Source: an uncultured bacterium (GTDB lineage: Bacteria; Verrucomicrobiota; Kiritimatiellia; RFP12; UBA1067). From it: a stretch of DNA of 64,000 bases. The stretch is from assembly GCA_902779865.1 (NCBI GenBank), contig CACZDG010000007.1, positions 8,958-72,957 of the forward strand, in the 5' to 3' direction. Numbering within the stretch: the stretch's first letter is position 1; every line of letters begins with the position of its first letter. This document shows positions 47,206 to 62,750 of this stretch, one piece after another. The notes beneath the pieces are model-generated. The model made no database searches. It was not told the DNA's origin and saw nothing but the letters and a program-made list of their open reading frames with translations. The position numbers were made by a program, and so were the translations under genes.

Positions 47206-47997
47206 ATGAAGAAACTCATTATTGGTGCTGCTGTTGCAACCATCGCTGCTGGTGCGTTCGCGGCGGCATGCAGTGAAGTTAAGGATTGTGCGGCTTGGGA
47301 TGTGAAGTTCAATCTCAAGACGCTCACCCCCAAGAAGACCAATTGCGGTAAGGATGCATGTGGTGAATCGCTCGGTTCGGTTTACTACCTTGATTCTGTT
47401 TCTCGCAAGATTGAAGGTTACATGTGGGCATGTGAGTATGATTGCGCGGAGAGCGATGAGTACTACATCACACTGTGGGATAAGAAGAACAAGAAGGCTG
47501 TTGTCGCTTATAGCGCAGAAGAAACTCAGACTGTTCCTGTCCCTGCCGATGATCTCCTCGTTTATGGCAAGAAGGCAACCAAGGTCGCTGGCACGTTCGT
47601 GTTCGAGGGGCTGATGGATGATGTCGGCGATGAGGCGTTCAACATTACGGCCGCAGGTATCAACGGCAAGTTCCAGAAGGGTGATAAGTGCTACATCAAG
47701 TCGCTGTCTGGCTATGCTGCTGGTAAGGTGAAGCTCTATGTGCCTACTGCCAAGACACCGAAGGGTTCGAAGGGTACTCTCTGCGAGGATCCTGAGCCTG
47801 TTGATCCTTGCGAGGATGTCCTTCTTCGTGCGGCGACCTTCTGCGATGCGTGCTGCTGGGAGACGTGGTGTGATGACACTTACGACTACGGTGAGACGCT
47901 TGTTCCGGCCGCTGGAACTTGGTCTATGAAGTACAACAAGAAGGTGTCCAAGGGGACGAAGTCGATGTCCCAGTTGATTCCTAGCTATGCTCTCTAA
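47206..47997 (+). CDS. Secreted cysteine-rich protein, family A copy 1 (paralog of 56720-57502)
   Basis: Signal peptide MKKLIIGAAVATIAAGAFAAA. 13 Cys by my count. Shares with copy 2 the blocks KIEGYMWACEYDC/KIKGVFWGCDC, CWETWC/CECAEGG, AAGTWSMKYNKK/ASGTWKLKYNAA and IPSYAL/FPSYVK. Confidence 0.7.
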   Translation: MKKLIIGAAVATIAAGAFAAACSEVKDCAAWDVKFNLKTLTPKKTNCGKDACGESLGSVYYLDSVSRKIEGYMWACEYDCAESDEYYITLWDKKNKKAVVAYSAEETQTVPVPADDLLVYGKKATKVAGTFVFEGLMDDVGDEAFNITAAGINGKFQKGDKCYIKSLSGYAAGKVKLYVPTAKTPKGSKGTLCEDPEPVDPCEDVLLRAATFCDACCWETWCDDTYDYGETLVPAAGTWSMKYNKKVSKGTKSMSQLIPSYAL

Positions 47998-48084
47998 TGA
48001 GGGTGTAAGGTTGTAACTTACAAAGTGGGGGGAGGTGGCAAAGGCTACTTCCCCCCATAATTGTAATACCTACAAGATACGCAC

Positions 48085-49131
48085 ATGTTAAAGTTACTCA
48101 CGACAGGTATTGTTGTATTTTTGATGTTGTTTGGTAGCGTGGGAATGGCTGCGCCAGTGCTTGAGCGTTTTATTCCTGTGAAGCCATCTTCTGGTATTGT
48201 TCTAGTACGTGTAAATGGGGTTGATATCACTCGAGCACAGTTGGACAGAAAACTTGACATGATGGTGGCCCTCTTGAAGAATAAAAAGAAAACTATGACT
48301 TCAGACGAAGTGGCAAAATTTAAGAAGAAGAATCTAATACCATTGAGTAACGCTCTCCTCTACCAGAAAATACTTGAAACTAATCTTGCCAGTTCAAATA
48401 TAATATCAAACGCGGCAGCGGAGAGAGAGGTGAAAAATGAGTTTCTTAGAAAATTTGGTAAACGAAAGCAATCATGGCAGGATTTGGTTGCGTATGTAAA
48501 GGGAACTGGGTTTGATAAGGATTTCAATGATAGATTTGCATTTGAGATTCGCCTTCGCAGTTTCTTTATGACAGTACATTCGAATCAGTATTATGTGACT
48601 CAGTCGGACATTGAAAAAGTAAAGGCAGATGTGTCAGCTTATAATAAGCGAGCAGCAGCGACAAATAAGGTAACACTTGCCTATGCCCAAAATATCTTGA
48701 AGAAGGCAAGATCTGGTGAAGATTTTGCAAAGTTGGCCAATCATTATTCACAAGACAAGGATCAGAATGATGGGGGAAGTTTGGGTGATTGCGATGAATC
48801 TGATTTTCTCGGAGGCGATCAGTATGTTTGGAAGATTTTAAATTCATTGAAAGTTGGGGATGTCAGTGATATCTTGCAGACGGAAGAAGGATATGTGATT
48901 TATAAGGTCGTTCGGCGTAACACGGCAGAGCAATCTCAAACTGGAAGCGCATCTTTGACATTGTCTAGAATCTTTTTTCGATGTGCATATTTATTTCCCG
49001 AGCAGACGGATGAAGAGTTAAGGGATGATGTTGAAAGAGAGAAGCGAGAAAAGTTGGCAATTGATGTTTACAAGGCGTTTCGCGCCCAAAGCAAGGTTTC
49101 TTATCCAAATGGCCCAGTAAGGGTAAAATGA
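48085..49131 (+). CDS. PpiC/parvulin-type peptidyl-prolyl isomerase (SurA/PrsA-like foldase)
   Basis: Signal or anchor MLKLLTTGIVVFLMLFGSVGMA. Parvulin block FAKLANHYSQDKDQNDGGSLGD...LKVGDVSDILQTEEGYVIYKV. The most AT-rich gene in the window. Confidence 0.8.
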   Translation: MLKLLTTGIVVFLMLFGSVGMAAPVLERFIPVKPSSGIVLVRVNGVDITRAQLDRKLDMMVALLKNKKKTMTSDEVAKFKKKNLIPLSNALLYQKILETNLASSNIISNAAAEREVKNEFLRKFGKRKQSWQDLVAYVKGTGFDKDFNDRFAFEIRLRSFFMTVHSNQYYVTQSDIEKVKADVSAYNKRAAATNKVTLAYAQNILKKARSGEDFAKLANHYSQDKDQNDGGSLGDCDESDFLGGDQYVWKILNSLKVGDVSDILQTEEGYVIYKVVRRNTAEQSQTGSASLTLSRIFFRCAYLFPEQTDEELRDDVEREKREKLAIDVYKAFRAQSKVSYPNGPVRVK

Positions 49132-49144
49132 AAGGTAAAGCTAA

Positions 49145-50395
49145 ATGAAACTGAAAACGGTAATCCTGACAATTGCATGTGCGGCTAGTAGTGTCGTATC
49201 TGCAGCATCCCTTAACGACGTTCAGTCGAATGTTGTACCTGGTGAATGGACAAGCAGTTATTCTGTAGCAAAGAAATATGCAGAAGACAATGGTGTGCCA
49301 ATGCTTGTTTTTTGGTCCAGCCCTGGATGTGCAAAATGCAGTAAAATGAAGGTTGCATGTAATACTGCTGAGTTTGTCACTTGGCGAAAAGCGAGAAAGT
49401 TAATCATGGTGTTTTCAGAGGGGGATTCGACCGTAAAGGCTTTTGCTAGAAATTCATCAGGGGATTATCCATATATGCGTCTTTATTGGCCTAAAGGTGG
49501 CGTTGATCTAAAGTTTACAGGTCGCTCAACCTCAATAAGAGCTTCGGGAAATACTTTACAGGCTCAACTCATGAACTACGTTGATGCAAATGTCAAGGCA
49601 TGGATTAGTGGTGGCGGTGATGCTGGTGGGGGCACAGAGGTGACACCAACTCCCACGCCCACCCCCACGCCCACTCCAGCAGATCTTTCTGCGTGGAAAA
49701 AAGCCCGTTTCCTCTACGGTTCATACTATACTAGCAATGGTGCGTTCGCTGGGCGCGTGGTGCTTACGGCTGGAAAGATTAATGCAAGGGGGGCCTCTAG
49801 AATCAAGGCTACGGTGATGGGATTCGATGGCCGGTCTAGGACATTTGGTCAGAAGTCTTTCACGGTGACTGGTACGACGACTGGTACACTGTCGAGTTCC
49901 GTAGGGACGTATGCATTCTCCATCAACGGTTCGTCGATTTCTGGCACTTTGACACGTGACGGCGTGGCATATTATGTAAAACCCGTGAAGACTGGGGGGA
50001 CATTGTCTGATGGGGCGTTCACCTTTAAACTCATCGATTATCCTGAGAAATGTGAAGGGTATCCGCTTATTCATGGTGCAAGTTATCTACCGATTTCGCA
50101 GTCCTTCACGTCCCGTTCGTCAAAGTGGTCTTTCGCGAGGCGGGGGGCGTTGCGTTACGTTACAAAAAGCGGCGACTTTGTCATGTCCGCTACGGATAAT
50201 CCTTCTGGCCTCAAGTTGTCATATAGAAGCACAAACGGCTATTTCAAGGGTACGTTCACGGTCTATGCCGCGCGTAATGGGAAGTATGTCAAGCGTTATT
50301 CAGCAAAGGTATCTGGTTTTATGGTTGGCAATTCCGGTGAGGGTGTTGTGACCATCAACAAAGTGGGTACGTTCAGCTGTACGATCACGCGCTGA
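49145..50395 (+). CDS. Secreted thioredoxin-fold (CxxC = CAKC) protein with TP-repeat linker and shared C-terminal module
   Basis: Signal peptide, VVPGEWTSSY, PMLVFWSSPGCAKCSKM, linker TPTPTPTPTPTP. C-terminus DNPSGLKLSYRSTNGYFKGTFTVYAARNGKYVKRYSAKVSGFMVGNSGEGVVTINKVG. Confidence 0.7.
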   Translation: MKLKTVILTIACAASSVVSAASLNDVQSNVVPGEWTSSYSVAKKYAEDNGVPMLVFWSSPGCAKCSKMKVACNTAEFVTWRKARKLIMVFSEGDSTVKAFARNSSGDYPYMRLYWPKGGVDLKFTGRSTSIRASGNTLQAQLMNYVDANVKAWISGGGDAGGGTEVTPTPTPTPTPTPADLSAWKKARFLYGSYYTSNGAFAGRVVLTAGKINARGASRIKATVMGFDGRSRTFGQKSFTVTGTTTGTLSSSVGTYAFSINGSSISGTLTRDGVAYYVKPVKTGGTLSDGAFTFKLIDYPEKCEGYPLIHGASYLPISQSFTSRSSKWSFARRGALRYVTKSGDFVMSATDNPSGLKLSYRSTNGYFKGTFTVYAARNGKYVKRYSAKVSGFMVGNSGEGVVTINKVGTFSCTITR

Positions 50396-50402
50396 CAAAT
50401 AA

Positions 50403-52115
50403 ATGGACAGAAGGTTTATAATTCTGTCGCTTTTGGCCGGTTTGGTGCTATGCACCATCGGCCAGGAGTCGTCTTTTGTGCCCGTCAATGGGCAGATGTA
50501 TCGCATGCGGCAGCCTGACGGTGTTGTGCGCATGTTTTTGCGCGACAATGACGAGCCGAATCTCCTTCACGGCGAAGGAGGTTGGACCGCCGAGCTTGAC
50601 GGGCGAAAGACTTTGGTAATGAACGATGCCGATCAGGATAAGGATCGGCGCGGCTTTTTGTTCTTGAATGGTTATTTGCGGAAGCAATTGGTTGGCGACC
50701 GCGAGATTGACGTTCGAGTTCCGCCTCCTGGTAGCGATGCTAAAGCACTTGCAGAACTTTGGCCAGTAAAGGAGGCACGTTTGGTCGCGGCGGAAGCGCC
50801 GGACATTTGGAGCGGCGGTCCGCGCATTCGGCTGTGGTTTGACAATCCGAACAAGGCCGGCTTCCTTTTTGCGGAGATTGCGCTTGCGGCTCTTGCTCTG
50901 CTCTTTTGCAGGCCGGTTTGGCTGCGGATTGTCGGCGCGGCCGTATCGCTTGCGTCGTTTATCGGATTGGTGCAGACGTCTTCCCGAGGGGCGCTGCTTG
51001 CGTTCCTGTGCGGTGTCGCAGCAATTGGCGCAGTGCGCTTCAAAAGTGTGTTCACAGCTAAAAGGTTGCTTGTTGTCGCCGCTGTGATTGGCGTGGCCAT
51101 TGGATGTCTGTTCGCCTCTGGGCAGTTCGAGCGTCTGGGCAAGAATCTTTTCAATGAGGGGCAACGCGAAACGAGCCGCCTGACGGTGTGGAAGGAGGTT
51201 CCGCGTATGATGGTGGATGCTCCGGATGGATGGGGATTCGGACAATCGGCAAGAGCATACATCGATTGGTATCAACCACAGAGCGTATGCCTGCTGAAGA
51301 ATTTGATCAGCGACCATCTCACCTTTCTCGTGGAAGCTGGTTGGCCGTTGCGCTTTGCATACGTATTTCTTTGGCTAGCAATAGGTAGTGTGCTGGCATG
51401 GTTGTCCGTGCAAGGTGCATCGCCAGTCCCGATGGCCATTATTGCGGCATTTGCGGTTGCGGGCTGCTTCAATCCCGTTGTTTTTGTTCCAGAACTATGG
51501 GTGATTCCGGTAACGGCCGTTGTGTGTTTGGCAATATTTCGTTTTCATGACTGGTTTGCCAGGAAAACGCTTGTGCCAGTAGCCATTGCAGCTCTGCTCA
51601 CGATGCTTGCCGCCGTTGGCGTTTACATTTGGGGATCGGCGGTATCTCCGAAAGTGTCCGTTCACAAGACGGGTGGAGCCGTTTGCTTAAATGGCGAGAA
51701 TCCGTCAATCTGGGTTGTTGACGACGACTATGTGTTGCATGGTGGCTATTGGTGGTTGGCTGGCCGCGAACTGCGTGATTCGCTTGAATCGCTGAAGACT
51801 TCTTCTTCGCTTGGGTACGTTCGCTCCGTGGCCGATTTGCCTAAGGATACAGACGTGATTGTGCTGCTTGGTGAGGCTGGCCGTGATTTCCTTGAACTGC
51901 AAAGCCGACCGGGTGCGAAGAAGGTTGTGTTCGTTTCGCCTCCATTTCCATGGCAGACCGTTCCTCTGTCGTTGTTGTCCACAAGCGAGGTATCGTTTGT
52001 GCTTGGTGGGGTAGCGGCGCGGCGTATTGCGGGAGAGGCATCGCCTCCTTCGTGGGTGACGATTGTGCCAGGCTCTGAACTTTATGTTCCCAACTGGCTC
52101 AAATTTGTGCTATAA
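50403..52115 (+). CDS. O-antigen ligase / Wzy_C-family membrane protein with extra N- and C-terminal domains
   Basis: LVQTSSRGALLAFLCGVAAIG, R..VWKEVPRMMVDAPDGWGFGQ and SDHLTFLVEAGWPLRF fit the O-antigen-ligase loop and His motif. About 150-aa N-terminal and about 170-aa C-terminal non-membrane extensions. Confidence 0.65.
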   Translation: MDRRFIILSLLAGLVLCTIGQESSFVPVNGQMYRMRQPDGVVRMFLRDNDEPNLLHGEGGWTAELDGRKTLVMNDADQDKDRRGFLFLNGYLRKQLVGDREIDVRVPPPGSDAKALAELWPVKEARLVAAEAPDIWSGGPRIRLWFDNPNKAGFLFAEIALAALALLFCRPVWLRIVGAAVSLASFIGLVQTSSRGALLAFLCGVAAIGAVRFKSVFTAKRLLVVAAVIGVAIGCLFASGQFERLGKNLFNEGQRETSRLTVWKEVPRMMVDAPDGWGFGQSARAYIDWYQPQSVCLLKNLISDHLTFLVEAGWPLRFAYVFLWLAIGSVLAWLSVQGASPVPMAIIAAFAVAGCFNPVVFVPELWVIPVTAVVCLAIFRFHDWFARKTLVPVAIAALLTMLAAVGVYIWGSAVSPKVSVHKTGGAVCLNGENPSIWVVDDDYVLHGGYWWLAGRELRDSLESLKTSSSLGYVRSVADLPKDTDVIVLLGEAGRDFLELQSRPGAKKVVFVSPPFPWQTVPLSLLSTSEVSFVLGGVAARRIAGEASPPSWVTIVPGSELYVPNWLKFVL

Positions 52116-52116
52116 T
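52108..52116 (+). promoter_or_regulatory. Extended -10 box TGCTATAAT overlapping the Wzy_C stop codon, followed by a 5' stem-loop at 52126-52144
   Basis: Exact TGnTATAAT. CACGCCC-ATGTC-GGGCGTG hairpin begins about 10 nt downstream. AAAGGAAA Shine-Dalgarno before the ATG at 52167. Confidence 0.45.
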
Positions 52117-52166
52117 ATTAGTCGACACGCCCATGTCGGGCGTGACAAAAGAAAGGAAATGAGTAA

Positions 52167-52655
52167 ATGAAAATTAGAAAATTCGTTGTGTGGGCGATGG
52201 TTGTTATGCTGCCGATCGCCGTTTTCTCGAAATCCTCGCTTAAGACTTTGGTGCTTGGCGATGATATCGTGTTGGAGCCTGAAAGTTCCTTGACGTTTAC
52301 TTTGGCTGGAGACTTGGAAGACCTTGCATTCCCCTACGAGTTGCTTCCATTCTCGCCCGACGGCGTTGATGTGGAATGGACCGGCAAGAAGTTCAAGACG
52401 CCCAAGGCAGGAAAGGTTAAGTACATCAAGAGCGACGAGGACTTCGGCGACTCGAAGGATTCGGACAATCCGTGTGGGCTGAAGATCAGCATCAACAAAA
52501 AGACTGGTAAGGTGAGCGGCTCATTCAAGGTCTATACGGCAAAGACTGAAAAGAAGCTTAAAACTTACACTGCCAAGGTTTCAGGGTATGTTGGGAGTGA
52601 GTCGCTTACGGTAACGATCAAGAAGATCGGGACGGTTGCGGCTTCGCTAGAATAG
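52167..52655 (+). CDS. Small secreted protein consisting essentially of the shared C-terminal module
   Basis: Signal peptide MKIRKFVVWAMVVMLPIAVFS. The block PDGVDVEWTGKKFKTPKAGKVKYIK...DNPCGLKISINKKTGKVSGSFKVYTAKTEKKLKTYTAKVSGYV...IKKIG aligns with the C-termini of 49145, 54426 and 57517. Confidence 0.7.
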   Translation: MKIRKFVVWAMVVMLPIAVFSKSSLKTLVLGDDIVLEPESSLTFTLAGDLEDLAFPYELLPFSPDGVDVEWTGKKFKTPKAGKVKYIKSDEDFGDSKDSDNPCGLKISINKKTGKVSGSFKVYTAKTEKKLKTYTAKVSGYVGSESLTVTIKKIGTVAASLE

Positions 52656-52683
52656 TTTTGTTCCAACGTTCAAGGATTGACAA

Positions 52684-53805
52684 ATGCGGTGGAGTTGTCA
52701 TCTTTTTGCGATTGTTTTTCTGACGGCGCTATCGTCGGCTGCTTTCAGTATTCCAATCTCATGCGGGGAAGTTGTTCCGGGTGAGTGGAATGCTGATTTT
52801 TCAGCCGTTCTTGAAAGGTCCAATCGTGAGCATTTGCCAATGCTGCTTGTTCGCGCCAGCGAGGGGTGTCCTCTTTGCGCGCGATTGAATCAAGCGTTGG
52901 ACGGGGAGGCCTTTTCGCAATGGCAGAAAGACCGCAAGTTGTTGATGGCGTATATCCGCACAAGTGGCCAGAATGCAGTCTCTAAGCGGGTGCAGAACTT
53001 CATCAAGTCCGTTTCGGGGGAGTTGCCAGAATTCCCGTATGTATGCGTTTACTGGCCCAAAGCCGATGGTACGACGAATAGTGTAGCTTTTGCCGGACGT
53101 CGCGGCGAGATGGGAACTGAACGCAAGGATTTGCTCTCCGTTGAGTTCATGACGGCCGTTGATAGAACTATTCAGGATTATTTGGCGCAGGATTCGCAGC
53201 ATGCAACGATTGAACAAATCCTCGCGAAAAGCGTAAAGAAAATTGCCTGCGCAAAAGCGGGGGCAGCGGGTTCCGTGGTCATGCGTCCCGAATCTGGAGT
53301 CTTGAATGAAGGAGGGAAAGTGATCCTTGAGGCACGGGCGGCTTCGGATGCGCTTTTTGTTGGATGGGAAGACCCTCAGGGGCGTTTTGTCGAATGGAAC
53401 TATCGTCTGGTCGTATCGGGGCGCATGCCTGCCGGCACTTATACTGCGCGTTTCCGTCCAAAGGAGGGATGCCCCCCACCGGCATTGACAACAGTGACGA
53501 CTTCCTTGTGTGTGCAAGTTGGTCGGAGGTTTAATTTATCGGTACCAGTCGATCCGACCAGTCGTCCGGTTCATTTCCGTGCTGCCCAGCGCTTGCCTAG
53601 GGGGGTGAAGCTTGACAAGGTTACTGGTGAACTTACCGGCTTGTTTCATAAAGAAGGTATTGTGCGTATTACAATTCTGGTTGTGGGATCGGACAAAGCA
53701 AACACTACAAAGTCCTATTCTGTCAACTTGACGATAGCCCCGAAGAGACGGCAATCCGTTTCAACTGCTATTGTGGACGAAAAAGCGGTGATGAGTTCGG
53801 AATGA
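52684..53805 (+). CDS. Secreted thioredoxin-fold (CxxC = CPLC) protein with Ig-like repeat domains
   Basis: VVPGEWNADF, PMLLVRASEGCPLCARL, YVCVYWPKADG parallel 49145. C-terminal GWEDPQGRFVEW (bacterial repeat-like) and RLPRGVKLDKVTGELTG (putative Ig domain). Confidence 0.65.
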   Translation: MRWSCHLFAIVFLTALSSAAFSIPISCGEVVPGEWNADFSAVLERSNREHLPMLLVRASEGCPLCARLNQALDGEAFSQWQKDRKLLMAYIRTSGQNAVSKRVQNFIKSVSGELPEFPYVCVYWPKADGTTNSVAFAGRRGEMGTERKDLLSVEFMTAVDRTIQDYLAQDSQHATIEQILAKSVKKIACAKAGAAGSVVMRPESGVLNEGGKVILEARAASDALFVGWEDPQGRFVEWNYRLVVSGRMPAGTYTARFRPKEGCPPPALTTVTTSLCVQVGRRFNLSVPVDPTSRPVHFRAAQRLPRGVKLDKVTGELTGLFHKEGIVRITILVVGSDKANTTKSYSVNLTIAPKRRQSVSTAIVDEKAVMSSE

Positions 53806-53815
53806 ATACACGCCA

Positions 53816-53965
53816 ATGAAGCGAGTGTTTCAATATTTTAACTGGTGGGTCGTGATGGGTACCATCGCCATTGCGGTGGTTTTGGGCATTCTCAATAATA
53901 TCCGTGTGTATGAGGAACAACGGGTGAATTGGTTTGGTGGCCCAGTTGTGGAATCAGAGGAATGA
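53816..53965 (+). CDS. 49-aa single-pass membrane protein (below the ORF-track cutoff)
   Basis: My translation is MKRVFQYFNWWVVMGTIAIAVVLGILNNIRVYEEQRVNWFGGPVVESEE. Its stop overlaps the MauE-like start region (TGATATG). Confidence 0.4.
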   Translation: MKRVFQYFNWWVVMGTIAIAVVLGILNNIRVYEEQRVNWFGGPVVESEE

Positions 53966-53966
53966 T

Positions 53967-54401
53967 ATGTGGTCGGCGGTACTAGTTTGGCTAGAGCGGC
54001 TGTGCCGCGTTGGATTAGGTAGCATGTTTGTCTATTCAGCCTGGGATAAAATCGCGGATCCAGGGCTGTTTGCCACGGTTGTGATGCGATACGAACTGCT
54101 GCCCGAAGTTGCGGTAGGGATGTTTTCGCTGACGCTGCCAATGCTAGAGATGTTAGTGGGGCTTTTGTTTTTATGCACGAAATGGTTGCGAGAGGCGGCA
54201 TTGTTGGCAACTGGCATGTTGTTGATGTTCTTGGGCGCATTGACGATTGCCATCGCACGCGGGCTGGAGATCGATTGCGGATGTTTCGGTATTTCGGGGG
54301 GAGGCAGGGCGGAATTGGTTCAAGCGGTAATACGCGACTTGGTGTTGTTGATGCCAACGGTGTGGTTGATTTTTCGACGTGAAAATTGGTTGTGGAAATA
54401 A
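53967..54401 (+). CDS. MauE/DoxX-family redox-associated membrane protein
   Basis: Four TM segments and the characteristic IDCGCFG motif. SAWDKIADPGLFATVVMRYELLP is typical of MauE-like proteins. Confidence 0.7.
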   Translation: MWSAVLVWLERLCRVGLGSMFVYSAWDKIADPGLFATVVMRYELLPEVAVGMFSLTLPMLEMLVGLLFLCTKWLREAALLATGMLLMFLGALTIAIARGLEIDCGCFGISGGGRAELVQAVIRDLVLLMPTVWLIFRRENWLWK

Positions 54402-54425
54402 TAAAGAAAGAAGAAGTAAAGTCAA

Positions 54426-56642
54426 ATGATATGTGTTTCTAAAAAGGTTTTCGCGGCGTTGGCAATTTGCCAGCTGTTTGCAGTCAACGAGTATGCCATG
54501 GCATACGGCATTGCGGAAGTGAAAGACGTGCGCGTCGCACCGCTTGTTTCCTCCAAATGGTCGGTTGGAGATTTCGGCGGGGCAAATGCGTTCAATTTTT
54601 ATACTCCAAAGAACTATTCTTGCGGGTGTGGAATTACGGCGTATGCACAGATTATGCGTTTTTGGCGTGCGCCAAATGCGGTAGCCGCGAAGAAATTTCA
54701 GTGCTGGCTTGATGGAGTCCCGGGAAGTTATTCGACTAGAGGGGGCGCATACGCTTGGGACGAAATGCCTTTCACGGGCGAAGAGTGCGTCAATGACGCC
54801 CAACGCGAGGCGCTTGGACATCTTGCTTTTGATCTAGGAGTGGCTTCGCATGTGTCATGGGCCAATATAAAGTATTCATATAGTTATGGAGTCCTTTCGG
54901 TAGCCGCATTGCAAGATTATTTCGGGTATGCGTCGGCTCGCACTCTTATGCGTGGAGCCTCTAATGGAAACATTTTCAAGGATGAAGACTATCGGAATGC
55001 TTTGCTTGCGAGCCTTGACGCCGGTATGCCTGCGGTAATCGGAGTTAGGACCGTTGACAACCAAGGGCATCAAGTAGTCGTTGACGGGTATGGGTTTGAC
55101 GATGCAGGCAAACTATTATGCCACTTGAATTTTGGGTGGAATGGAGCCGCTGACAATTGGTACAATCTTATGGAGAATGCTTTTGCCGCAGGTGACGGCA
55201 TTGATGAGTTTGTATTCGCCCACATTGACGAAATAGCCTACAACATTCATCCAAGCAAGAAGGGAGAGGTTATTTCGGGACGTGTTTTGGATAAGGCTGG
55301 GAATCCTGTCAAAAACATTTCAGTTAGATTTGGACTGGCTGGGAAGGCCTCGTCGGTTGAGGAGACGCTTACGGATGAGAATGGCATCTACAGTTTCCGT
55401 TTTACAGGGAAGGGCAAGTATGTTGTCTCGGTGGCTGATGAGAATCTAGGGCAGGCGGAACGAACGATTACTATTTCAAAGGATGGAGCAAGTGTGGCCT
55501 TGGTTCCGTCGTTGGACTTCTCCGTCCCGTTCACCAGTTTCAAACTTTACGCAAACGCCATTGGTACCGTAGGTAACCGATGGGGAGAGGATCTGGTGCT
55601 TAAGGAAGGCTCGTCTGCACCCATTCCCCCGCCTACAACCGGTCCCATTTTCAGCGCCGCTGCCACAATTGATGGTTACCTGACGGATGCTGGCGGAAAA
55701 ATGGCTGGAACCATTCAGGTGAAGGCGGGAAAGGCCGACAAGGCCGGTCAAAGCAAGATGACGGCTAACGTCATGATAAATGGACAGGCAAAGAAATGGT
55801 CATTCAAGGGCGTTATGGCGGCAGATGGTTCGGCAAGCCTCTCTTGTGCGGGGCAACCGGCTCTGAATCTTGCGTTTGATGAAAAGGGAATGAGCGGTAA
55901 GCTTGGAGGGCGTGATGTCGTAGGCGTGCGGAATTTGTTCGCATCGAAAGTCAAGACAGAAGTCAATGAGGCCAATGCAGCACTGAAAACGTTGTTGGGT
56001 ACGTTGAACGTAGCATCGGATGGTACGTTCCTGACTGTGACGATTGCGGCCAAGGGCAAGGTCAAGGTGACCGGAATGATTGGCGAGAAGAAGGTTTCGA
56101 CAACAAGCCAGCTTCTGCTTGGTGAGACCCAGCACGTCATACCTGTGTTGGTGACGAAACCTACTATGTTGGCGTTCCTTGTCAACATGGCACCGAACGG
56201 GAGCGTGATCAGCGTAGAGGGGTTGAAAACATGCAAGGCTGGCAAGGTTGTTGGTTTGCGTTCAAACGCCAAGTTCCATGTGGATACTTCGGCGGAACTT
56301 TGGAAATCGTTGCAGGGGAACGTTATTACGGGGGTGTTGCCTGATGGCCAGCCTGTGCCCGTGTCTGGCAGTAAGTGGATTCTTGACAAAGCGGGGAAGG
56401 TGGTGTACAAAAAAGGCACGACTGATTTGGATGATACGAAGTTCGGCAAGAACCCTTCTGCGTTGAAACTGACCTACAAGGCGAAAGACGGGACATTCAA
56501 GGGGGCGTTCAAGGTATATTGTGAGGTGAAGGGTAGGCTAAAAGCAACGACCGTTAATGTGACGGGTGTGTTGATTGGCGACAGGGGTTATGGTTCGGCT
56601 TCCATCAAAAAAGTTGGGAGTGTGCCGATAACGGTTGAATAG
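54426..56642 (+). CDS. Peptidase C10 (streptopain/SpeB-like cysteine protease) with carboxypeptidase-regulatory-like domain and shared C-terminal module
   Basis: Catalytic Cys context YSCGCGITAYAQIMRFW. His context GHQVVVDGYGFD. HLNFGWNGAADNWYNL matches the SpeB NWGWGG block. ISGRVLDKAGNPV...TDENGIYSF. C-terminus NPSALKLTYKAKDGTFKGAFKVYCEVKGRLKATTVNVTGVLIGDRGYGSASIKKVG. Confidence 0.82.
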   Translation: MICVSKKVFAALAICQLFAVNEYAMAYGIAEVKDVRVAPLVSSKWSVGDFGGANAFNFYTPKNYSCGCGITAYAQIMRFWRAPNAVAAKKFQCWLDGVPGSYSTRGGAYAWDEMPFTGEECVNDAQREALGHLAFDLGVASHVSWANIKYSYSYGVLSVAALQDYFGYASARTLMRGASNGNIFKDEDYRNALLASLDAGMPAVIGVRTVDNQGHQVVVDGYGFDDAGKLLCHLNFGWNGAADNWYNLMENAFAAGDGIDEFVFAHIDEIAYNIHPSKKGEVISGRVLDKAGNPVKNISVRFGLAGKASSVEETLTDENGIYSFRFTGKGKYVVSVADENLGQAERTITISKDGASVALVPSLDFSVPFTSFKLYANAIGTVGNRWGEDLVLKEGSSAPIPPPTTGPIFSAAATIDGYLTDAGGKMAGTIQVKAGKADKAGQSKMTANVMINGQAKKWSFKGVMAADGSASLSCAGQPALNLAFDEKGMSGKLGGRDVVGVRNLFASKVKTEVNEANAALKTLLGTLNVASDGTFLTVTIAAKGKVKVTGMIGEKKVSTTSQLLLGETQHVIPVLVTKPTMLAFLVNMAPNGSVISVEGLKTCKAGKVVGLRSNAKFHVDTSAELWKSLQGNVITGVLPDGQPVPVSGSKWILDKAGKVVYKKGTTDLDDTKFGKNPSALKLTYKAKDGTFKGAFKVYCEVKGRLKATTVNVTGVLIGDRGYGSASIKKVGSVPITVE

Positions 56643-56660
56643 TAAAAAGTGCTTTGGCCG

Positions 56661-56683
56661 CACTTGACTTTGCAAGTGTTTTT
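56661..56683 (+). terminator. Short hairpin plus T5 after the C10 protease gene
   Basis: CACTTG-ACTTTG-CAAGTG followed by TTTTT. The stem is only 6 bp. Confidence 0.4.
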
Positions 56684-56686
56684 AGG

Positions 56687-56692
56687 TACAAT
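56687..56692 (+). promoter_or_regulatory. -10 box TACAAT upstream of cysteine-rich protein copy 2
   Basis: TACAAT 27 nt upstream of the ATG at 56720. AAAGGAG Shine-Dalgarno. Confidence 0.4.
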
Positions 56693-56719
56693 ACGCGCCA
56701 AGCCTAAAAAGGAGAAATC

Positions 56720-57502
56720 ATGAAAACGATAACAGTGTTTGCAGTTGCAGTTCTTTCGACATTTGCCGTCTTTGCTGACGCGCAGGTGTATGAGATGACG
56801 ATTACTCTTAAGTCCACAACTGCCGCATCTGGTAAAATCACGCCAATAGTGTGCGATACGCCGAAGCCGGAAGTCAATTTGTACCGCAAGCAGTCCACCG
56901 TAAAGATAAAAGGGGTGTTTTGGGGATGTGATTGCGAGACGATTGCCGAACCGCAGTTTGTAACGTCTGCGGAGGCTACCTATGGTTATGTCTTCTGGAA
57001 TGAAACGACTCACAAGGTTCTTGATGTTGAATTTGGCTGGCATATACTCAACCGCATTGACAAGAAGCTGAAGAAAGCAGAAGGCGCATGGATGATCGGC
57101 AGTTTGGATTCAGATGTTTTTCTTACGGGGGCTGGTTTCGGAACGGTCAAGGATGATGTCGCCAAGGCGTCGTGTACGATCAATTCCGTTATTCTAACAC
57201 CCATGAGCGGTTCCTGCGCTGGTTGGTTGTCGCTTCCTTCTGTCACAGTCAAGGGAACGGCTGAAGATTGCCCTAAATGTGGCGAGGTTACGCCTGGTAC
57301 CGATGATGTTGAGACTGTTGCACCGGCTTGGTCGTTATGCGAATGCGCCGAAGGTGGCGAATACACTGCTGCATCAGGCACATGGAAACTCAAGTACAAT
57401 GCAGCGGCCTCAAAGAAGTGGAAGAATGCTGATGCATCTCTTTCAATAACGAAGGCATATTCATTCCCGTCATACGTTAAGACGTTTATAGAATCGTTGT
57501 AA
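56720..57502 (+). CDS. Secreted cysteine-rich protein, family A copy 2
   Basis: Signal peptide MKTITVFAVAVLSTFAVFADA. Paralogous blocks shared with 47206-47997 (see that entry). Confidence 0.7.
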   Translation: MKTITVFAVAVLSTFAVFADAQVYEMTITLKSTTAASGKITPIVCDTPKPEVNLYRKQSTVKIKGVFWGCDCETIAEPQFVTSAEATYGYVFWNETTHKVLDVEFGWHILNRIDKKLKKAEGAWMIGSLDSDVFLTGAGFGTVKDDVAKASCTINSVILTPMSGSCAGWLSLPSVTVKGTAEDCPKCGEVTPGTDDVETVAPAWSLCECAEGGEYTAASGTWKLKYNAAASKKWKNADASLSITKAYSFPSYVKTFIESL

Positions 57503-57516
57503 ATGGAGCATTGCAA

Positions 57517-59328
57517 ATGAGAATCGCTTTCAGGGCATCGATCATGGCTGCGGGCGCGCTTGTCGCGTCCGTAGTCTGGGGGTTTGAATACAACGTGCGT
57601 CAACCGTCGGACTACCTTAAGCCGACGTGGCATTCGAAGGATACGGCCCCTGGTGTCTGGACTCTCAATGTTGATGATGCCTTGGCTCGTGCCAAGGCCG
57701 CTGGCAAGTGTACGATTCTCATGATGACGGCTTCGTGGTGGTGTCCATATTGCGAGACGTTTGAGGACATGGTTCTTTCGTCGAAAGCATGGAAGAACTA
57801 TGTGGCGGAGAAAGGGTTCTACCTCGCGATGCTGGATTTCCCGTATCGCAATGACGTGCCCGCAGGTCAGGAGTGGAAGAGTTGGCGCCCCGATCTTGGA
57901 AAGGGATGGGGCTTCAAGTGTTGGCTTATGAATCAGACTTATCTTGCGGAGATTGGCCTTACGCAAGAGGAAGGTCTGGACGCAATCATGGATCTGTACA
58001 AGCGTCAAGGTGAGCTTGCCACGGAGTCTGCACAACTGATAACGATGAAAAACTGGAGGCAGACGAAAGAGTTTACATACGGCAAGGTCGGTTATCTATC
58101 CTTGATCGTAATTGGACCAGATGGGAAAGAACGTGGGCGCATGTCGTTCCCGTGGTACAAAACAGAGTCTGTGACTGTTTCAGAGGCGCAAGAGTACGTC
58201 TTTCAATCGCTTGAGCAAATCATGGCTGGCACGTGTGAGATTTGCACCGATCCTGCTGCAGGCGTCCCAGTTACTGACAAGGCACAGGAGTACGACGGCT
58301 GGTTGGCCGATGGTTCAGGCGCGATTGCAGGCTTCGTACAGTTCAAGACATCGCGACGCATGGCTTCTGGCGCGGTTAAGGTCAGTGGTAGCGTTACAAT
58401 CTCAGGTAAGAAGACTACCTTCAAGCCAGTAGTTGCGTTCAATTTGAACCAGCCGATCGTTCTTGTGAATAAGGGTAAATCTGTAAACGTTTCGTTTGGC
58501 GAACTCGGTCTAAGTGGAGACGTGATGGTGGATGGCGTCCGATACACGATTGGAGGAGGAGGACGGAACGTGTTCAAAGCTAAGGATACTGCGGCTATGA
58601 GACGTCGGGTCTCAGCGCCGTCAGGCAATTGGAGTGTTGTCCTTAAACCTTCCGACAAGGATGCTCCGAATCGATACGCGCGCGGGTATGGCTCATTGAC
58701 GGTGCAGTTGCGCAGCAACGGTATTGGGAAAATTATTGGTTTTCTTGGCGATGGTACAAAGGTGAGCGTCAAATGCCAGGCAATTGTCGGCGACGATGGC
58801 GTATCTTGCTTGCCTGTATGTGCAAACCTTTACGGGAAAAGGGGTGGTCTGGGTTTCGTGTTATGGTTCAAGAACGGTCGTTTGCTCACGGCAACGGCTA
58901 TCAGGCCTTGGAAGGCCGTTGGTCGCTATGCGTCTTTTATAGCAAACTACGTCCCGAATTTCACTATGTCATCAGGTATTGGCGAGCCGTTGAACGAGAT
59001 GGATCTGACGATTGAGGACTTTGACGAAACGGCGCTTCTACGTGCGCTTCCGCTCGCTTGGTCTCCTTCTGAAGACATTGTAGAGGTCAAGGGAACAAAA
59101 TGGATTGGCACAAAGGCGTCTTACTTTTCGGCGAGGTGTACGGTGAGTTCGGGCCTGTTGAAGGGCAATATGACATTTTCGACGGTTCGTCCGAACGGGG
59201 CGATTAAAAAGGTTAAAGGGACTTTTACCGGTGTAATAATGGGGGGATCTGGATATGGTACGGTTTTTGTGGCAGGAGAGGGGACTTGGGCCGTCAAAAT
59301 CGCCGTTTGTGGAAGTTGCAGCGAGTAA
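57517..59328 (+). CDS. Secreted thioredoxin-fold (CxxC = CPYC) protein with beta-rich middle region and shared C-terminal module
   Basis: APGVWTLNV, CTILMMTASWWCPYCETFE. The middle YDGWLADGSGAIAGFVQFKTSRR parallels YGSYYTSNGAFAGRVVLTAGK (49145) and IDGYLTDAGGKMAGTIQVKAGK (54426). C-terminus SSGLLKGNMTFSTV...KVKGTFTGVIMGGSGYGTVFV. Confidence 0.7.
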   Translation: MRIAFRASIMAAGALVASVVWGFEYNVRQPSDYLKPTWHSKDTAPGVWTLNVDDALARAKAAGKCTILMMTASWWCPYCETFEDMVLSSKAWKNYVAEKGFYLAMLDFPYRNDVPAGQEWKSWRPDLGKGWGFKCWLMNQTYLAEIGLTQEEGLDAIMDLYKRQGELATESAQLITMKNWRQTKEFTYGKVGYLSLIVIGPDGKERGRMSFPWYKTESVTVSEAQEYVFQSLEQIMAGTCEICTDPAAGVPVTDKAQEYDGWLADGSGAIAGFVQFKTSRRMASGAVKVSGSVTISGKKTTFKPVVAFNLNQPIVLVNKGKSVNVSFGELGLSGDVMVDGVRYTIGGGGRNVFKAKDTAAMRRRVSAPSGNWSVVLKPSDKDAPNRYARGYGSLTVQLRSNGIGKIIGFLGDGTKVSVKCQAIVGDDGVSCLPVCANLYGKRGGLGFVLWFKNGRLLTATAIRPWKAVGRYASFIANYVPNFTMSSGIGEPLNEMDLTIEDFDETALLRALPLAWSPSEDIVEVKGTKWIGTKASYFSARCTVSSGLLKGNMTFSTVRPNGAIKKVKGTFTGVIMGGSGYGTVFVAGEGTWAVKIAVCGSCSE

Positions 59329-59343
59329 TTGGGGATTATTGCC

Positions 59344-60525
59344 ATGAAGAAGTATGCAGTTTTTATATTGATTTCGCTGGTTGCGATTGTGGCTGTGGTG
59401 TGGTTTGTGGCGCTGCCGCGTGGCGCGGAAGAGACGCCGCAAACAGAACATGTCGATGGCATAAAGAGTGGACGGCGTTTAGTCCGCCGCACTGGGCGGA
59501 ATCCGACCAATGTGCGTGAAAAAGTGCGAGGTATCGTTTCAACCGAACCCAAGAATGGGCGCCGTCGTCCACGACCAGACGCGGAGATGTTTGAACATCT
59601 GCGCGGGGTGGATCGTCGGCTTGCCGAGAGTATTCAGAAAGCGCTGGATGACGACAATTATAGTGGCGTTATGGAATCCGTTGATGCCGCCATGCGTTCG
59701 AAGAATGCCGAAGTACGCTCGCACCTAGTCGATGCCTTGGGTTGGTTTGGGGTCGAGGCGTTGCCCGAGCTCACGGTGCTGATGGCTGATCCGGATGATG
59801 AAGTGGCCGAATCGGCGCAAGCGCAGTGGACAGTTGCCCTGGCCGAAATTGAGAATCCAGGCAAACGCATGCAGATCGGTTTATCGGTGCTTGGGACGTT
59901 TTCTAATAAGGACATGTTGGATGGTATTATCGGAGAGGTTTCTAACGCCGCCGTTGAATACATTGAGGAAGAACCGGACGATTCAGATGAAGCGGAGAAT
60001 GCAGAGCGTCAAAGTACTAGGCGCATAGAGGTGGTTCAGGCTCTTCTTGATATTATGAGTGGCGATCTGCCAGTATGCGCTAAAGCCGCTGCCGAGGCAT
60101 ACGAAGATATTACGGGACACGAATGGATCAGCATTGACGAGGCAGAGCTTTACTTGCAGAACCCTGATGACTATGAACTGCCCGAAGATCGTGACGATGA
60201 CGATAATAAACGGATTCAGCCGCCAGTTGAGCCGCCAGTCGAACAGCCCGCTGAGCAGCCTGTTGAACAGCCAGTAGAGCAACTCGGCGAGCAGCCAGTA
60301 GTGCAGCCCGTTGAGCAACCCGTTGAACAACCAGGTGAGCAGCCTGTTGAACAGCCCGTAGAGCAGCCCGTTGAACAGCCTGGTGAACAACCAGTGGTGC
60401 AGCCAGTAGAGCAACCTGTTGAACAGCCAGGCGACCAGCAACAGCCTGTTGATACGCCGGAGCAAGACGACGATGACGATGGTGTTGTTATAGGACCAGA
60501 TGGCAAACGTATTGGTAATAGGTAA
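59344..60525 (+). CDS. Membrane-anchored HEAT-like repeat protein with acidic (E/V)QP(V/G) tandem-repeat tail
   Basis: N-terminal TM helix. LVDALGWFGVEALPELTVLMADPDDEVAESAQAQW is HEAT-like. The tail holds about 18 copies of a 4-aa EQPV/EQPG unit. Confidence 0.65.
   Translation: MKKYAVFILISLVAIVAVVWFVALPRGAEETPQTEHVDGIKSGRRLVRRTGRNPTNVREKVRGIVSTEPKNGRRRPRPDAEMFEHLRGVDRRLAESIQKALDDDNYSGVMESVDAAMRSKNAEVRSHLVDALGWFGVEALPELTVLMADPDDEVAESAQAQWTVALAEIENPGKRMQIGLSVLGTFSNKDMLDGIIGEVSNAAVEYIEEEPDDSDEAENAERQSTRRIEVVQALLDIMSGDLPVCAKAAAEAYEDITGHEWISIDEAELYLQNPDDYELPEDRDDDDNKRIQPPVEPPVEQPAEQPVEQPVEQLGEQPVVQPVEQPVEQPGEQPVEQPVEQPVEQPGEQPVVQPVEQPVEQPGDQQQPVDTPEQDDDDDGVVIGPDGKRIGNR
60216..60446 (+). repeat. 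12-nt periodic coding tandem repeat (GAGCAGCCNGTN)n
   Basis: Reads QPPVEPPVEQPAEQPVEQPVEQLGEQPVVQPVEQPVEQPGEQPVEQPVEQPVEQPGEQPVVQPVEQPVEQPG. There is a higher-order repeat of about 60 nt. Confidence 0.85.
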
Positions 60526-61331
60526 TGAAGAAAACGGTCATTTCTTGCCTCGTAGGCCTACTTTGCGTGTCGGCGATTGTTATTGTCGTGTTGCGGCACG
60601 ATGGCGCGTCAAGTAAGGCAGATATTGATCCTGGTGACCGCGATGAAGTTTCTTCGCGCAACCCAGGCAAGAAATTTTCAGTGACTCCGGCTTCATCGCA
60701 GCGTAAGCGCCATAAAGTGGCTAATCCGTCAAAACCGGTTTTGGATTTAGGTGTTGATGATGACGATGATGAGGAAGACAGGCGGACGCCAGCCGAGAAG
60801 GCGCTTGCAGAACGCATAGAGAAGGCTCTTGACGAAGAAGATCTTGAAATGGCGGTGTCATGCGCAGACGAGGCCCTGTCATGCGCGGTCACCGAGATTC
60901 GTCAGGCGATGGTTGAAACACTTGGCTGGTTTGGCGAGAAAGCGCTACCTGAACTCACGCCATTTCTTGCGGATGCCGATGAAGACGTTCGCGACAGCGC
61001 GATGAACGAATGGACAACGGCATTGTCATCCATTGAGGATGAAAAAGCAAAAATCGGGGTTGTGGAACTTGCGATGGGCGTCCTTAAGGATGAGGATGCA
61101 TTGGAGTCGATTTCGAGCGAATATATCGGCGTGGACGAGAAACTGGCCGTTGAGTCGCTGTCTAGGATCATTACGGACGGGAAGTCGGCTGCTGGCGTCG
61201 AAAAGGCCAAGGAGACTTACGAGTTTGTAACTGGCGACGAATGGGCGGGTGTTGATGAGGCCGCACGCTGGATTGCCGAAGAATACGAACCGCCAAACCA
61301 AGCTGATGCTTCTGGTGGCAATCAACGGTGA
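60525..61331 (+). CDS. Membrane-anchored HEAT-like repeat protein (tandem paralog of 59344-60525)
   Basis: MVETLGWFGEKALPELTPFLADADEDVRDSAMNEW and TYEFVTGDEWAGVDEAARW align with the upstream paralog. TAATG overlap. Confidence 0.65.
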   Translation: MKKTVISCLVGLLCVSAIVIVVLRHDGASSKADIDPGDRDEVSSRNPGKKFSVTPASSQRKRHKVANPSKPVLDLGVDDDDDEEDRRTPAEKALAERIEKALDEEDLEMAVSCADEALSCAVTEIRQAMVETLGWFGEKALPELTPFLADADEDVRDSAMNEWTTALSSIEDEKAKIGVVELAMGVLKDEDALESISSEYIGVDEKLAVESLSRIITDGKSAAGVEKAKETYEFVTGDEWAGVDEAARWIAEEYEPPNQADASGGNQR

Positions 61332-61334
61332 CGG

Positions 61335-62750
61335 ATGTTCACTCAGGGCAGAATAAGGGTAGTGGCGCTGGGGATGGCGGATGCAGCGTGCATCGCCTCC
61401 GTATGGATGTTGTCCGTTCTCTCGTATTGGTGGCTTGGCGGAGACTATGACCCCGCGCTGTATCTATCTTTCTGGCCTGTGGTCCCGGCGTTTCTTCTGC
61501 TGAACGCGGTACTTGGACTATACAATGGGAGCTGGATGTACCCGGCCGCACCTTTGTCGCCGGTCGAGGAGATGCGGCGGCTTTTCCTCTCATCGCTGAT
61601 TGTGCATCTGGCCGTTGTCGCCTTTCTCGTCATGTTGTTCCAGACCACGCGGGGCTATTCGCGTGTCGTCATCGCGTCCGCTGGCGTATTGACCTCGCTG
61701 CTCTCGCAGTCGTTTCGGAATTGGATGAGGTATGCGTTGTTCAAGCTGAATGCGGGGCAGATACCCGTTCTGCTTGCAGGTGTGGGCGAGGCGGGACGGC
61801 GGCTGGCCGTGATTCTCAAAACCGATCCCTACACTGGCTTTAAAATCGTCGGCTACTTCAACGGTGTTCGCGAGGTGAACCCCGAATTGGATAGCAAGGA
61901 GATCCCGTGCCTTGGTTCGTTTAAGGACATCGTACCAGAGGCGAAGAGGCTCGACGTCAAGATACTGATTGCATGCCAGGACGAACGTCTCTTCCGTTGC
62001 CAGATGAAGGAGTTCTCAGCCTGGTTCACGTACATCGAGTTTCTGCCCACGGCAAGCGCATTCCCCGTATTCGGCTCAAAGGCCGTTGTGTTCGATGGCT
62101 TGGGCGGGCTTGAAATGGTCAACCAGGCGCGCAAGCGGGCGTTGCGATTCCAGAAATGGTTACTCGACAAAACACTCGCTTTGATCGCTTTTGTGGTGGC
62201 GTTGCCTTTCTTCATCGTCCTGCCTGTCCTTATAAAGCTGACAAGCCGCGGTACGGTATTTTACAGGCAGGAACGGCTTGGACGCTACGGAAAGCCGTTC
62301 CGCGTGTGGAAGTTCCGTTCCATGTACGCCGACGCCGATGCGCGCCTCAAACGCCTCTGCGAGGAAAACCCTGAATTGGCGGCAGAATGGGAACGTAATT
62401 ACAAGCTTTCAAACGACCCGCGCGTGACGCCGTTCGGACGTTTCCTCCGGCGTACGTCCCTTGATGAACTTCCCCAGCTCATTAACGTGCTTTGCGGCGA
62501 GATGGCGTTGATTGGTCCGCGTCCAATTGTTGCGGGCGAAGTGAAATACTATGGCACTTCCTACGAAACGTTTGCGTCCGTGCGTCCTGGCGTTACGGGG
62601 CTTTGGCAGATTTCCGGACGCAGCGATACAGATTACGACCGACGCGTCGCGCTGGACACCTATTACGTGTTGAACTGGTCGCCGTGGATGGACTTGTGGA
62701 TTCTCCTGCGTACCGTCCTCGCCGTCGTTCTCATGCGCGGTGCGCGATGA
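61335..62750 (+). CDS. Polyprenyl-phosphate glycosyl-1-phosphate transferase (bacterial sugar transferase, WbaP/CpsE type)
   Basis: N-terminal TM bundle, then [71 protein letters not shown]. Confidence 0.88.

Follow-up and report, generated by a model that had tools for sequence, protein, structure and literature searches.

Here, we describe a C-terminal domain shared by four secreted proteins of an uncultured bacterium of the Kiritimatiellia. The proteins are encoded within 64,000 nucleotides (nt) of contig CACZDG010000007.1 (positions 8,958 to 72,957; assembly GCA_902779865.1), hereafter called the window. Sequence comparison indicates that the four C-termini are homologous. It also suggests that the domain, D1-D2-D3, is a lineage-specific and previously undescribed family, absent from Pfam and NCBIfam. 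We propose, with a probability of roughly one half, that this is a cell-envelope targeting and retention domain of gut Kiritimatiellae. The proposal draws on domain architecture, charge and genomic context. Briefly, D1, D2 and D3 are three operational profiles into which a region of ~340 amino acids (aa) was split, and their boundaries are likewise operational. The four genes are as follows.

Trx416, 49145..50395 (+): secreted thioredoxin-like protein of 416 aa, with a CAKC motif, a TP-repeat linker and a short form of the C-terminal domain; D1, aa 185-250 (nt 49697-49894); D3, aa 313-414 (nt 50081-50386).
D3-only protein, 52167..52655 (+): 162 aa, consisting of a signal peptide, a short acidic beta segment and D3, aa 59-160 (nt 52341-52646).
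C10 peptidase, 54426..56642 (+): secreted cysteine peptidase of 738 aa, with a CarboxypepD_reg domain and the full C-terminal domain; D1, aa 409-506 (nt 55650-55943); D2, aa 507-631 (nt 55944-56318); D3, aa 635-738 (nt 56328-56639).
Trx605, 57517..59328 (+): secreted thioredoxin-like protein of 603/605 aa, with a CPYC motif and a divergent full C-terminal domain; D1, nt 58255-58578; D2, nt 58591-58965; D3, nt 59101-59301.

Signal peptides were read from the sequences of all four proteins. The start of Trx605 at 57517 was adopted from the gene calls of identical contigs.

A preliminary description of this DNA had aligned the four C-termini by eye, as an unrecognised module of about 100 aa. BLASTP bears out the alignment. 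The 162-aa protein matched both the C10 peptidase (E=1e-14, 32% identity over 155 aa) and Trx416 (E=3e-15), while the C10 peptidase matched Trx416 (E=6e-14). Residues 402-737 of the C10 peptidase aligned with residues 248-597 of Trx605 over ~340 aa (E=1e-11). We also built a hidden Markov model (HMM) from the four stretches and searched a six-frame translation of the window. Only the same four open reading frames (ORFs) were found, with E-values from 1e-43 to 3e-25. There was no fifth copy in the window; the next best ORF had E=0.45.

The conserved unit is longer than the module first described. We aligned 68 full-length relatives and searched with residues 395-738 of the C10 peptidase; both identified a C-terminal region of ~340 aa. 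This region occurs in many proteins with ~45% identity and 95-100% coverage. The module itself is real, and equates to D3, but is only the last third of D1-D2-D3. The C10 peptidase and Trx605 have all three lobes, Trx416 has D1 and D3, and the 162-aa protein has D3 only. The complete D1-D2-D3 architecture was present in 126 of 145 new best profile matches. A beta-rich segment, previously noted upstream of the module in the three large proteins, was also correctly identified. It is the start of D1, with the family consensus YxGYLYDxxGxVKGTIQVKVGK, and is part of the same conserved region.

The 162-aa protein had been viewed as essentially the module alone. It does carry D3 and no other lobe, but its alignments with the larger proteins extend N-terminally to residue ~30. 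Hence, the smallest autonomous unit is ~135 aa, comprising the tail of D2 and D3, and a signal peptide and acidic segment are present in addition. The equivalent extended unit of Trx416 begins at approximately aa 284 (nt 49994). Profile E-values for the individual lobes were 7.8e-6 (D1) and 1.1e-24 (D3) for Trx416, and 9e-24 (D3) for the 162-aa protein. Those for D1, D2 and D3 were 4.7e-31, 1.4e-40 and 1.5e-47 in the C10 peptidase, and 6.7e-22, 6.3e-23 and 4.9e-16 in Trx605. We considered D1, D2 and D3 as repeats of a single unit. This was rejected since hhalign found no significant similarity (D1 versus D3, E=0.15-0.35; D2 versus D3, E=0.06). The best result was a 31-column local match between D1 and D2, with a probability of 17.5%.

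Family searches used Pfam-A (2025 copy) and NCBIfam 20.0. N-terminally, the C10 peptidase matched Peptidase_C10, and Trx416 and Trx605 matched Thioredoxin_7 just under its cutoff; the shared C-termini of the four window proteins had no match. Similarly, no family matched the C-terminal region of 70 further domain-bearing sequences. A sequence-profile search of the PDB returned nothing below E=0.13, and we found no description of the domain in Kiritimatiellae in the literature. The module was therefore rightly called unrecognised with respect to Pfam-A, NCBIfam and the PDB.

An HMM search of public databases had been suggested in the preliminary description. We searched 1.84 billion cluster representatives exhaustively with a profile and inspected the best 150 matches. 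In total, 1,422 protein clusters matched at E≤1e-3, 1,025 at E≤1e-10 and 171 at E≤1e-30. Among the best 150 of the 1,422 matches, the alignment ended 0-32 residues before the end of the protein in every case, with host proteins between 93 and 3,233 aa long. We also scanned one genome per GTDB species using a single peptide pattern, an approach biased towards close relatives. The scan gave 139 confirmed matches, from which 79 loci were kept (individual loci are denoted by L and a number). All derive from gut, rumen or faecal metagenome-assembled genomes (MAGs), with up to eight loci from a single MAG. Most are labelled as Kiritimatiellae, some as Verrucomicrobia or Lentisphaerae, and a few as Firmicutes bins (Lachnospiraceae, Anaerovoracaceae). 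We take the latter to be mis-binned contigs.

The 79 loci contain 92 D3-bearing ORFs and, in 90 of these, D3 is ≤14 residues from the stop codon. Hence, C-terminal placement is near-exclusive, not absolute. In the remaining two (L034, 9883-12525, and L080, 243-1793) D3 is internal, and followed by 133 and 238 unannotated residues, respectively. These ORFs may be fusions, read-through or assembly errors. A Fibrobacter-type paralogous domain was considered for the 238-aa tail in L080 and dropped, there being no NCBIfam match. The preliminary description had pictured, as the contrary outcome, a named Pfam domain scattered at arbitrary positions. Neither a Pfam match nor such scatter was found. 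Giant adhesin-like proteins are frequent carriers of the domain. At L008, L024, L035, L050, L057 and L081, ORFs of more than 3,400 aa run past the edge of the locus and have the domain at their end.

Conservation continues to the last codon. The terminal consensus, [IV]-K-K-V-G-S-V-P-V-T-[IV]-E-COOH, ends right at the stop codon. The last residue is E or D in 106 of 145 matches and the final pair is IE or VE in 94. Position -3 is T or S in 65 of 106 sequences.

The N-terminal passengers are diverse. Among 68 hosts, Pfam identified Flg_new (the InlB B-repeat) in 28, LRR_5 (BspA-type) in 25, reprolysin-like metalloproteases in four and Peptidase_C10 in two. Further passengers were FGE-sulfatase (on P0123), NosD and Ig-like domains, and no Pfam family covered the C-terminal region of these 68 hosts. 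Using a simple heuristic, we counted a signal-peptide-like N-terminus in 80 of 130 hosts of at least 300 aa. The other 50 start within repeats and are truncated gene calls. Proteins of 335-360 aa, apparently composed of a signal peptide and the domain only, were also rejected as a separate class; these are N-terminally truncated gene calls that begin in the linker. C-terminal position, together with many unrelated N-termini of secreted or surface type, is the pattern of a sorting or anchoring domain.

Charge differs sharply between domain and passenger. The domain contains 10.2% Lys and 1.9% Arg, has a median net charge of +13 and a median isoelectric point (pI) of 9.4; for D3, the pI exceeds 9 in 94% of cases. 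Passengers are acidic, with a median pI of 4.6 and 95% of values under 6. The stand-alone proteins of ~160 aa have the same basic D3 after a short acidic segment. Since the charge of the domain is opposite to that of its cargo, electrostatic binding to an anionic envelope component is suggested.

The model that we favour is as follows. The domain would tag Sec-exported proteins of gut Kiritimatiellae, which are diderm bacteria of the Planctomycetes-Verrucomicrobia-Chlamydiae (PVC) group. Following Sec export and an outer-membrane step, the acidic passenger (adhesin repeats, a protease or a thiol oxidoreductase) would be kept at the surface by a compact, Lys-rich, basic and all-beta domain. The binding partner would be an anionic envelope component, either lipopolysaccharide (LPS) or a phosphate-containing glycan from the surrounding locus. 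Terminal placement and conservation of the ...V-T-[IV]-E ending suggest that the free C-terminus may be a recognition signal too. The four window genes, encoding two thioredoxins, a C10 protease and a D3-only protein, would be conserved 'housekeeping' members of the family. Sec export followed by retention is plausible because Kiritimatiella has an outer membrane, LPS genes and the Sec, Tat and type II secretion systems (PMC5148204).

We predicted the structure of C10 peptidase residues 395-738 (344 aa) using AlphaFold2 and an alignment of 70 sequences. The model is a single confident unit, with a mean predicted local distance difference test score (pLDDT) of 95.4 and a predicted template modelling score (pTM) of 0.90. 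It is all-beta, with ~25 strands in three groups, and a helix follows the first eight strands. The 162-aa protein was predicted with a pLDDT of 83, rising above 90 across aa 50-160. Foldseek found no credible neighbour for either model in the PDB, or for the 344-aa model in BFVD (TM-score ≤0.3). The top matches, sliding clamps at a root-mean-square deviation of ~19 Å, are spurious or very weak. Hence, as modelled, the fold is apparently new.

Within the same limit (TM-score ≤0.3), Foldseek gave weak hints of two-barrel, lipocalin and LolA-type proteins. Such ligand binders fit a different explanation. The domain could be an ordinary module with no part in targeting; it might, for instance, bind ligands as lectins do, bind the host or a substrate, or form a structural stalk. 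Its C-terminal position would then result from duplication and shuffling in one lineage. The family is limited to one clade, where repeat-protein families expand through duplication, D3 is internal in two ORFs and no machinery gene is consistently adjacent. However, a shuffled module is not expected at the extreme C-terminus across more than 1,000 clusters, on unrelated enzymes, redox proteins and adhesins of 160 to over 3,400 aa. Nor would it be expected to have a conserved terminal motif that stops exactly at the stop codon, or a conserved stand-alone D3 protein within an envelope-biogenesis cluster. We consider this explanation unlikely.

Tests of profile, size, fold and motif fail for the known sorting and anchor families compared here. 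Hence, the domain belongs to none of them and represents a new family that can be likened, in its proposed function, to the C-terminal domain (CTD) of type IX secretion system (T9SS) cargo or to anchors of the GW and SLH type. InlB of Listeria has leucine-rich repeats (LRRs), B-repeats and a basic GW-module anchor; SLH and CWB2 are other non-covalent anchors. Like GW modules, the domain described here is C-terminal, strongly basic, non-enzymatic and found behind LRR and B-repeat passengers. The mechanism that we propose, electrostatic binding of an anionic envelope polymer, is also the same, though for our domain such binding is a prediction. The sequence and predicted fold are unrelated to GW modules, and there was no SLH profile match. 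Furthermore, Kiritimatiellae are diderm so, unlike with GW and SLH-type anchors, a step that crosses the outer membrane would also be needed.

Other C-terminal tags were considered and rejected. The PEP-CTERM/exosortase and LPXTG/sortase systems likewise mark the C-terminus of many secreted proteins, and the genes are frequently located within or close to exopolysaccharide loci. Those signals consist of a short motif, a transmembrane helix and a basic tail, whereas here the tag is a folded and soluble beta domain of 340 aa that ends in VT[IV]E. We found no hydrophobic C-terminal helix, and no VPEP or EpsH match in the cluster proteins. The LPXTG motif and tail are absent from the four C-termini, with no Gram_pos_anchor match, and Pfam and NCBIfam identified neither an exosortase nor a sortase gene in the cluster. 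A type V autotransporter beta-domain (PF03797) was excluded by the lack of a Pfam match, the lack of an outer-membrane barrel in Foldseek results, and a terminal residue that is Glu rather than aromatic.

The four genes are part of a larger cluster. Between 47 and 63 kb of the window all genes are on one strand, with gaps of 0-130 nt. The other members are listed below.

Cys-rich signal-peptide protein, 47206..47997 (+): 263 aa, family unassigned, conserved in the cluster.
PpiC/SurA-type peptidyl-prolyl isomerase, 48085..49131 (+): 348 aa, Pfam Rotamase E=1.7e-12, conserved first member of the cluster.
Wzy_C-like protein, 50403..52115 (+): 570 aa, polytopic and O-antigen-ligase-like, between two domain-bearing genes.
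Third thioredoxin-like (Trx) protein, 52684..53805 (+): 373 aa, with a CPLC motif and Ig-like repeats.
MauE/DoxX-like membrane protein, 53934..54401 (+): Pfam MauE E=2.1e-25, flanked by thioredoxin-like genes.
Cys-rich signal-peptide protein, 56720..57502 (+): 260 aa, family unassigned, conserved in the cluster.
Two membrane-anchored HEAT-like proteins, 59329..61331 (+): 398 and 268 aa, HEAT_2 matches on orthologues.
Polyprenyl glycosylphosphotransferase (WbaP/EPS_sugtrans), 61335..62750 (+): TIGR03025, 350.9 bits (cutoff 295.55).

Family membership was supported for the C10 peptidase (PF01640 Peptidase_C10, aa 54-246, 111.3 bits, cutoff 26) and for the Wzy_C-like protein (Wzy_C/PF04932, aa 181-316, 42.8 bits, cutoff 31.7). 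The latter may be a WaaL-type ligase, a polymerase or an O-oligosaccharyltransferase; all are candidate activities. The genes at 49145, 52684 and 57517 scored 24.9, 12.7 and 26.7 bits against Thioredoxin_7 (cutoff 27), and each has its motif (CAKC, CPLC and CPYC, respectively) at the expected position. The isomerase lacks the C-terminal domain, and the third Trx protein had no match to the D1, D2 or D3 profiles. Neither Cys-rich protein matched Pfam or NCBIfam; the two have in common only a C-terminal motif, GTW(S/K)(M/L)KYN. The HEAT-like pair is conserved beside the D3-only gene and the glycosylphosphotransferase gene. In the first of the pair (59329-60525), a 12-nt tandem repeat of ~17 copies (window 60218-60428) encodes (PVEQ)n in the C-terminal part of the protein, and the gene product varies from 365 to 393 aa among otherwise near-identical contigs. 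Elsewhere in the window (20249-22468) there is a 739-aa fusion of a Ser/Thr protein kinase and an FGE-sulfatase (formylglycine-generating-enzyme-like) domain. A scan of the cluster for promoters and terminators gave nothing above shuffled expectation.

The presence of a polyprenyl glycosylphosphotransferase gene indicates that the cluster is part of an envelope-glycan locus. This locus includes genes for a GT1 glycosyltransferase, a Kdo/WaaP-like kinase, a LicD-family protein, the WbaP/EPS-type glycosylphosphotransferase and a MraY/WecA-like transferase. There are also two proteins resembling glycerol-3-phosphate cytidylyltransferases, matched at family level only. GC content is 0.44-0.53 over the Trx/Wzy_C/C10 cluster (window 48000-60000) versus 0.57-0.67 in the first 46 kb. 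Such a drop would fit a surface-antigen locus that is variable or exchanged horizontally. In our model, the Wzy_C-family membrane enzyme might ligate or transfer the glycan to which the domain would bind.

The cluster recurs, with rearrangements, in several other lineages (L007, L047, L054, L059/L040 and L088/89), and Wzy_C identity falls to 32-39% in the most distant. The recurring order is: 263-aa Cys-rich protein, PpiC, Trx(D1-D3), Wzy_C-like, D3-only, Trx(D1-D2-D3), HEAT, (HEAT), C10(D1-D2-D3), glycosylphosphotransferase. Orthologues of the D3-only protein, 155-165 aa long, are widespread. The preliminary description had raised an association with the Wzy_C-like gene, and the synteny is conserved in both directions. 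In the reverse direction, we examined Wzy_C-like relatives with at least 50% identity and usable flanks (L088/89 and L092-L097). On each side covered by the contig, a Trx gene with D3 is upstream, and a D3-only gene downstream, of the Wzy_C-like gene. Two relatives with 28-30% identity lack D3-bearing flanking genes. In the L086/L087 lineage, the D3-only gene accompanies HEAT and glycosylphosphotransferase genes and no Wzy_C gene is nearby; in another, it adjoins a gene for a reprolysin-like domain protein. In L059 (514-4536, the contig of L040), the gene upstream of the Wzy_C-like gene specifies a product of 1,341 aa that has two thioredoxin-like segments but lacks D3. Hence, the Trx partner of Wzy_C is conserved even when it lacks the C-terminal domain.

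The association with the MauE-like gene, raised at the same time, did not hold. MauE was rejected as a partner because no homologue was found in the 79 loci L007-L085; the gene was restricted to close relatives of the window organism (L002-L006 and L096). We also considered a conserved adjacent partner, in the style of two-partner systems. When 592 neighbouring ORFs from the 79 loci were clustered, no family was present in more than six loci, and this idea too was rejected.

Conservation of the Trx, Wzy_C-like, D3-only and C10 genes could instead reflect a dedicated and covalent sorting system. In this scenario D1-D2-D3 would be the cargo tag, or address, of a hitherto unknown PVC counterpart of T9SS or exosortase. 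The conserved cluster (the Wzy_C-family enzyme, domain-bearing C10 protease, D3-only protein, thioredoxins and HEAT proteins) would be responsible for processing proteins that carry the tag, and for attaching them covalently to an envelope glycan. The C10 protease could serve as a PorU-like signal peptidase or transpeptidase, and the D3-only protein as an adaptor or primer. The Wzy_C enzyme could supply or transfer the glycan anchor or, in the way that TfpO modifies the C-terminus of pilin, could O-glycosylate the Ser/Thr located at -3. Known examples of Wzy_C-family enzymes beside small dedicated substrates are the pilA-tfpO and comP-pglS pairs, and PorU itself carries a CTD. Our cluster resembles the pilA-tfpO and comP-pglS O-oligosaccharyltransferase pairs in that the Wzy_C-family gene adjoins that of a small secreted protein (the ~160-aa D3-only protein) with Ser/Thr near its C-terminus. 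Here, however, the candidate substrate is no pilin and its C-terminal residue is Glu rather than Ser.

T9SS provides a precedent for covalent sorting. The CTD of T9SS cargo (Por_Secre_tail, PF18962/TIGR04183) likewise forms the extreme end of many Sec-exported proteins that are otherwise unrelated; it is all-beta and its last residues are conserved. Cargo in Bacteroidetes includes HBP35 (a thioredoxin), PrtT and periodontain (C10 proteases), BspA (LRR) and metalloproteases (PMC5445135). The passenger classes match those of the Kiritimatiellae domain, and both are tied to an envelope-glycan pathway. Two reports describe cleavage of the cargo CTD, sortase-like joining of cargo to anionic LPS (A-LPS), and a block to export upon removal of the last two residues (PMC4560394, PMC5445135). 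This precedent, the strict C-terminal position and conserved end of our domain, T or S at -3 in most of the sequences counted, and the D3-bearing gene on every covered side of the Wzy_C-like relatives with at least 50% identity all favour a covalent system.

The CTD of T9SS cargo is a beta-sandwich of ~70-100 aa, whereas the Kiritimatiellae domain is ~340 aa with three lobes, and no PDB structure was matched by Foldseek. There was no match to PF18962/TIGR04183 at E≤1 in the four window proteins, or at E≤0.01 in 70 relatives. T9SS has been reported only in Bacteroidetes (PMC5445135), whereas the hosts here are PVC bacteria. Several points weigh against a covalent system. C10 proteases and thioredoxins are ordinary cargo of T9SS, so those in our cluster need no special role. 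No cleavage motif was identified at the junction of passenger and domain, where linkers are heterogeneous. The L086/L087 lineage has the D3-only, HEAT and glycosylphosphotransferase genes without Wzy_C nearby, and the Wzy_C-like gene may simply encode the WaaL of an O-antigen locus. We consider covalent sorting by the cluster quite unlikely.

Some observations weigh against envelope targeting and retention. All hosts of the domain are uncultured, and we infer the localisation of its carriers. The periplasm, instead of the surface, could be the compartment concerned, given that thioredoxins, PpiC and MauE classically reside there. The basic charge fits the binding of anionic polymers yet is not specific to it, and the case for an anionic glycan at the locus comes from family-level matches below equivalog cutoffs. 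Given the two ORFs with internal D3, a free C-terminus is not absolutely required. Finally, the bulk of domain genes at the 79 loci are dispersed, with no recurrent neighbour, and a dedicated processing machinery is therefore hypothetical. Hence, for the sorting or anchoring role proposed in the preliminary description, position, varied passengers and the absence of a known family are in agreement. We infer the function itself, including surface location, anionic-glycan binding and any role of Wzy_C.

A periplasmic setting, which the Trx, PpiC and MauE neighbours would suit, raises one further explanation. The domains could form an assembly module by binding each other or a scaffold, in the manner of dockerins or S-layers, or could retain proteins on periplasmic peptidoglycan. 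Genomes contain many copies, a confident prediction gives the three lobes as a single rigid unit, and the D3-only protein could cap or nucleate an assembly. Conversely, the uniformly high positive charge disfavours homotypic packing without a counter-charged partner, and among the 79 loci we saw no scaffold-like protein bearing repeated acidic receptor modules. The periplasm is also an unlikely home for giant LRR and B-repeat adhesins and for secreted proteases. We regard an assembly module as very unlikely.

The Kiritimatiellae that inhabit the human gut, the rumen and the hindgut of horses are abundant and largely uncultured, and the surface display of adhesins and enzymes by PVC bacteria is scarcely understood. 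A new family model and a structure are merited for a fold that is confidently predicted as all-beta, has no PDB neighbour and is absent from Pfam and NCBIfam. If envelope anchoring is true, labelled recombinant domain could probe the envelope polymer that is bound. The domain also points to a candidate anchoring mechanism, with the Wzy_C-subfamily enzyme, the D3-only protein and the C10 protease as candidate partners. As one easily recognised domain on more than 1,400 protein clusters, giant LRR adhesins and proteases among them, it offers a computational entry point to the whole surface and secreted proteome of the clade.

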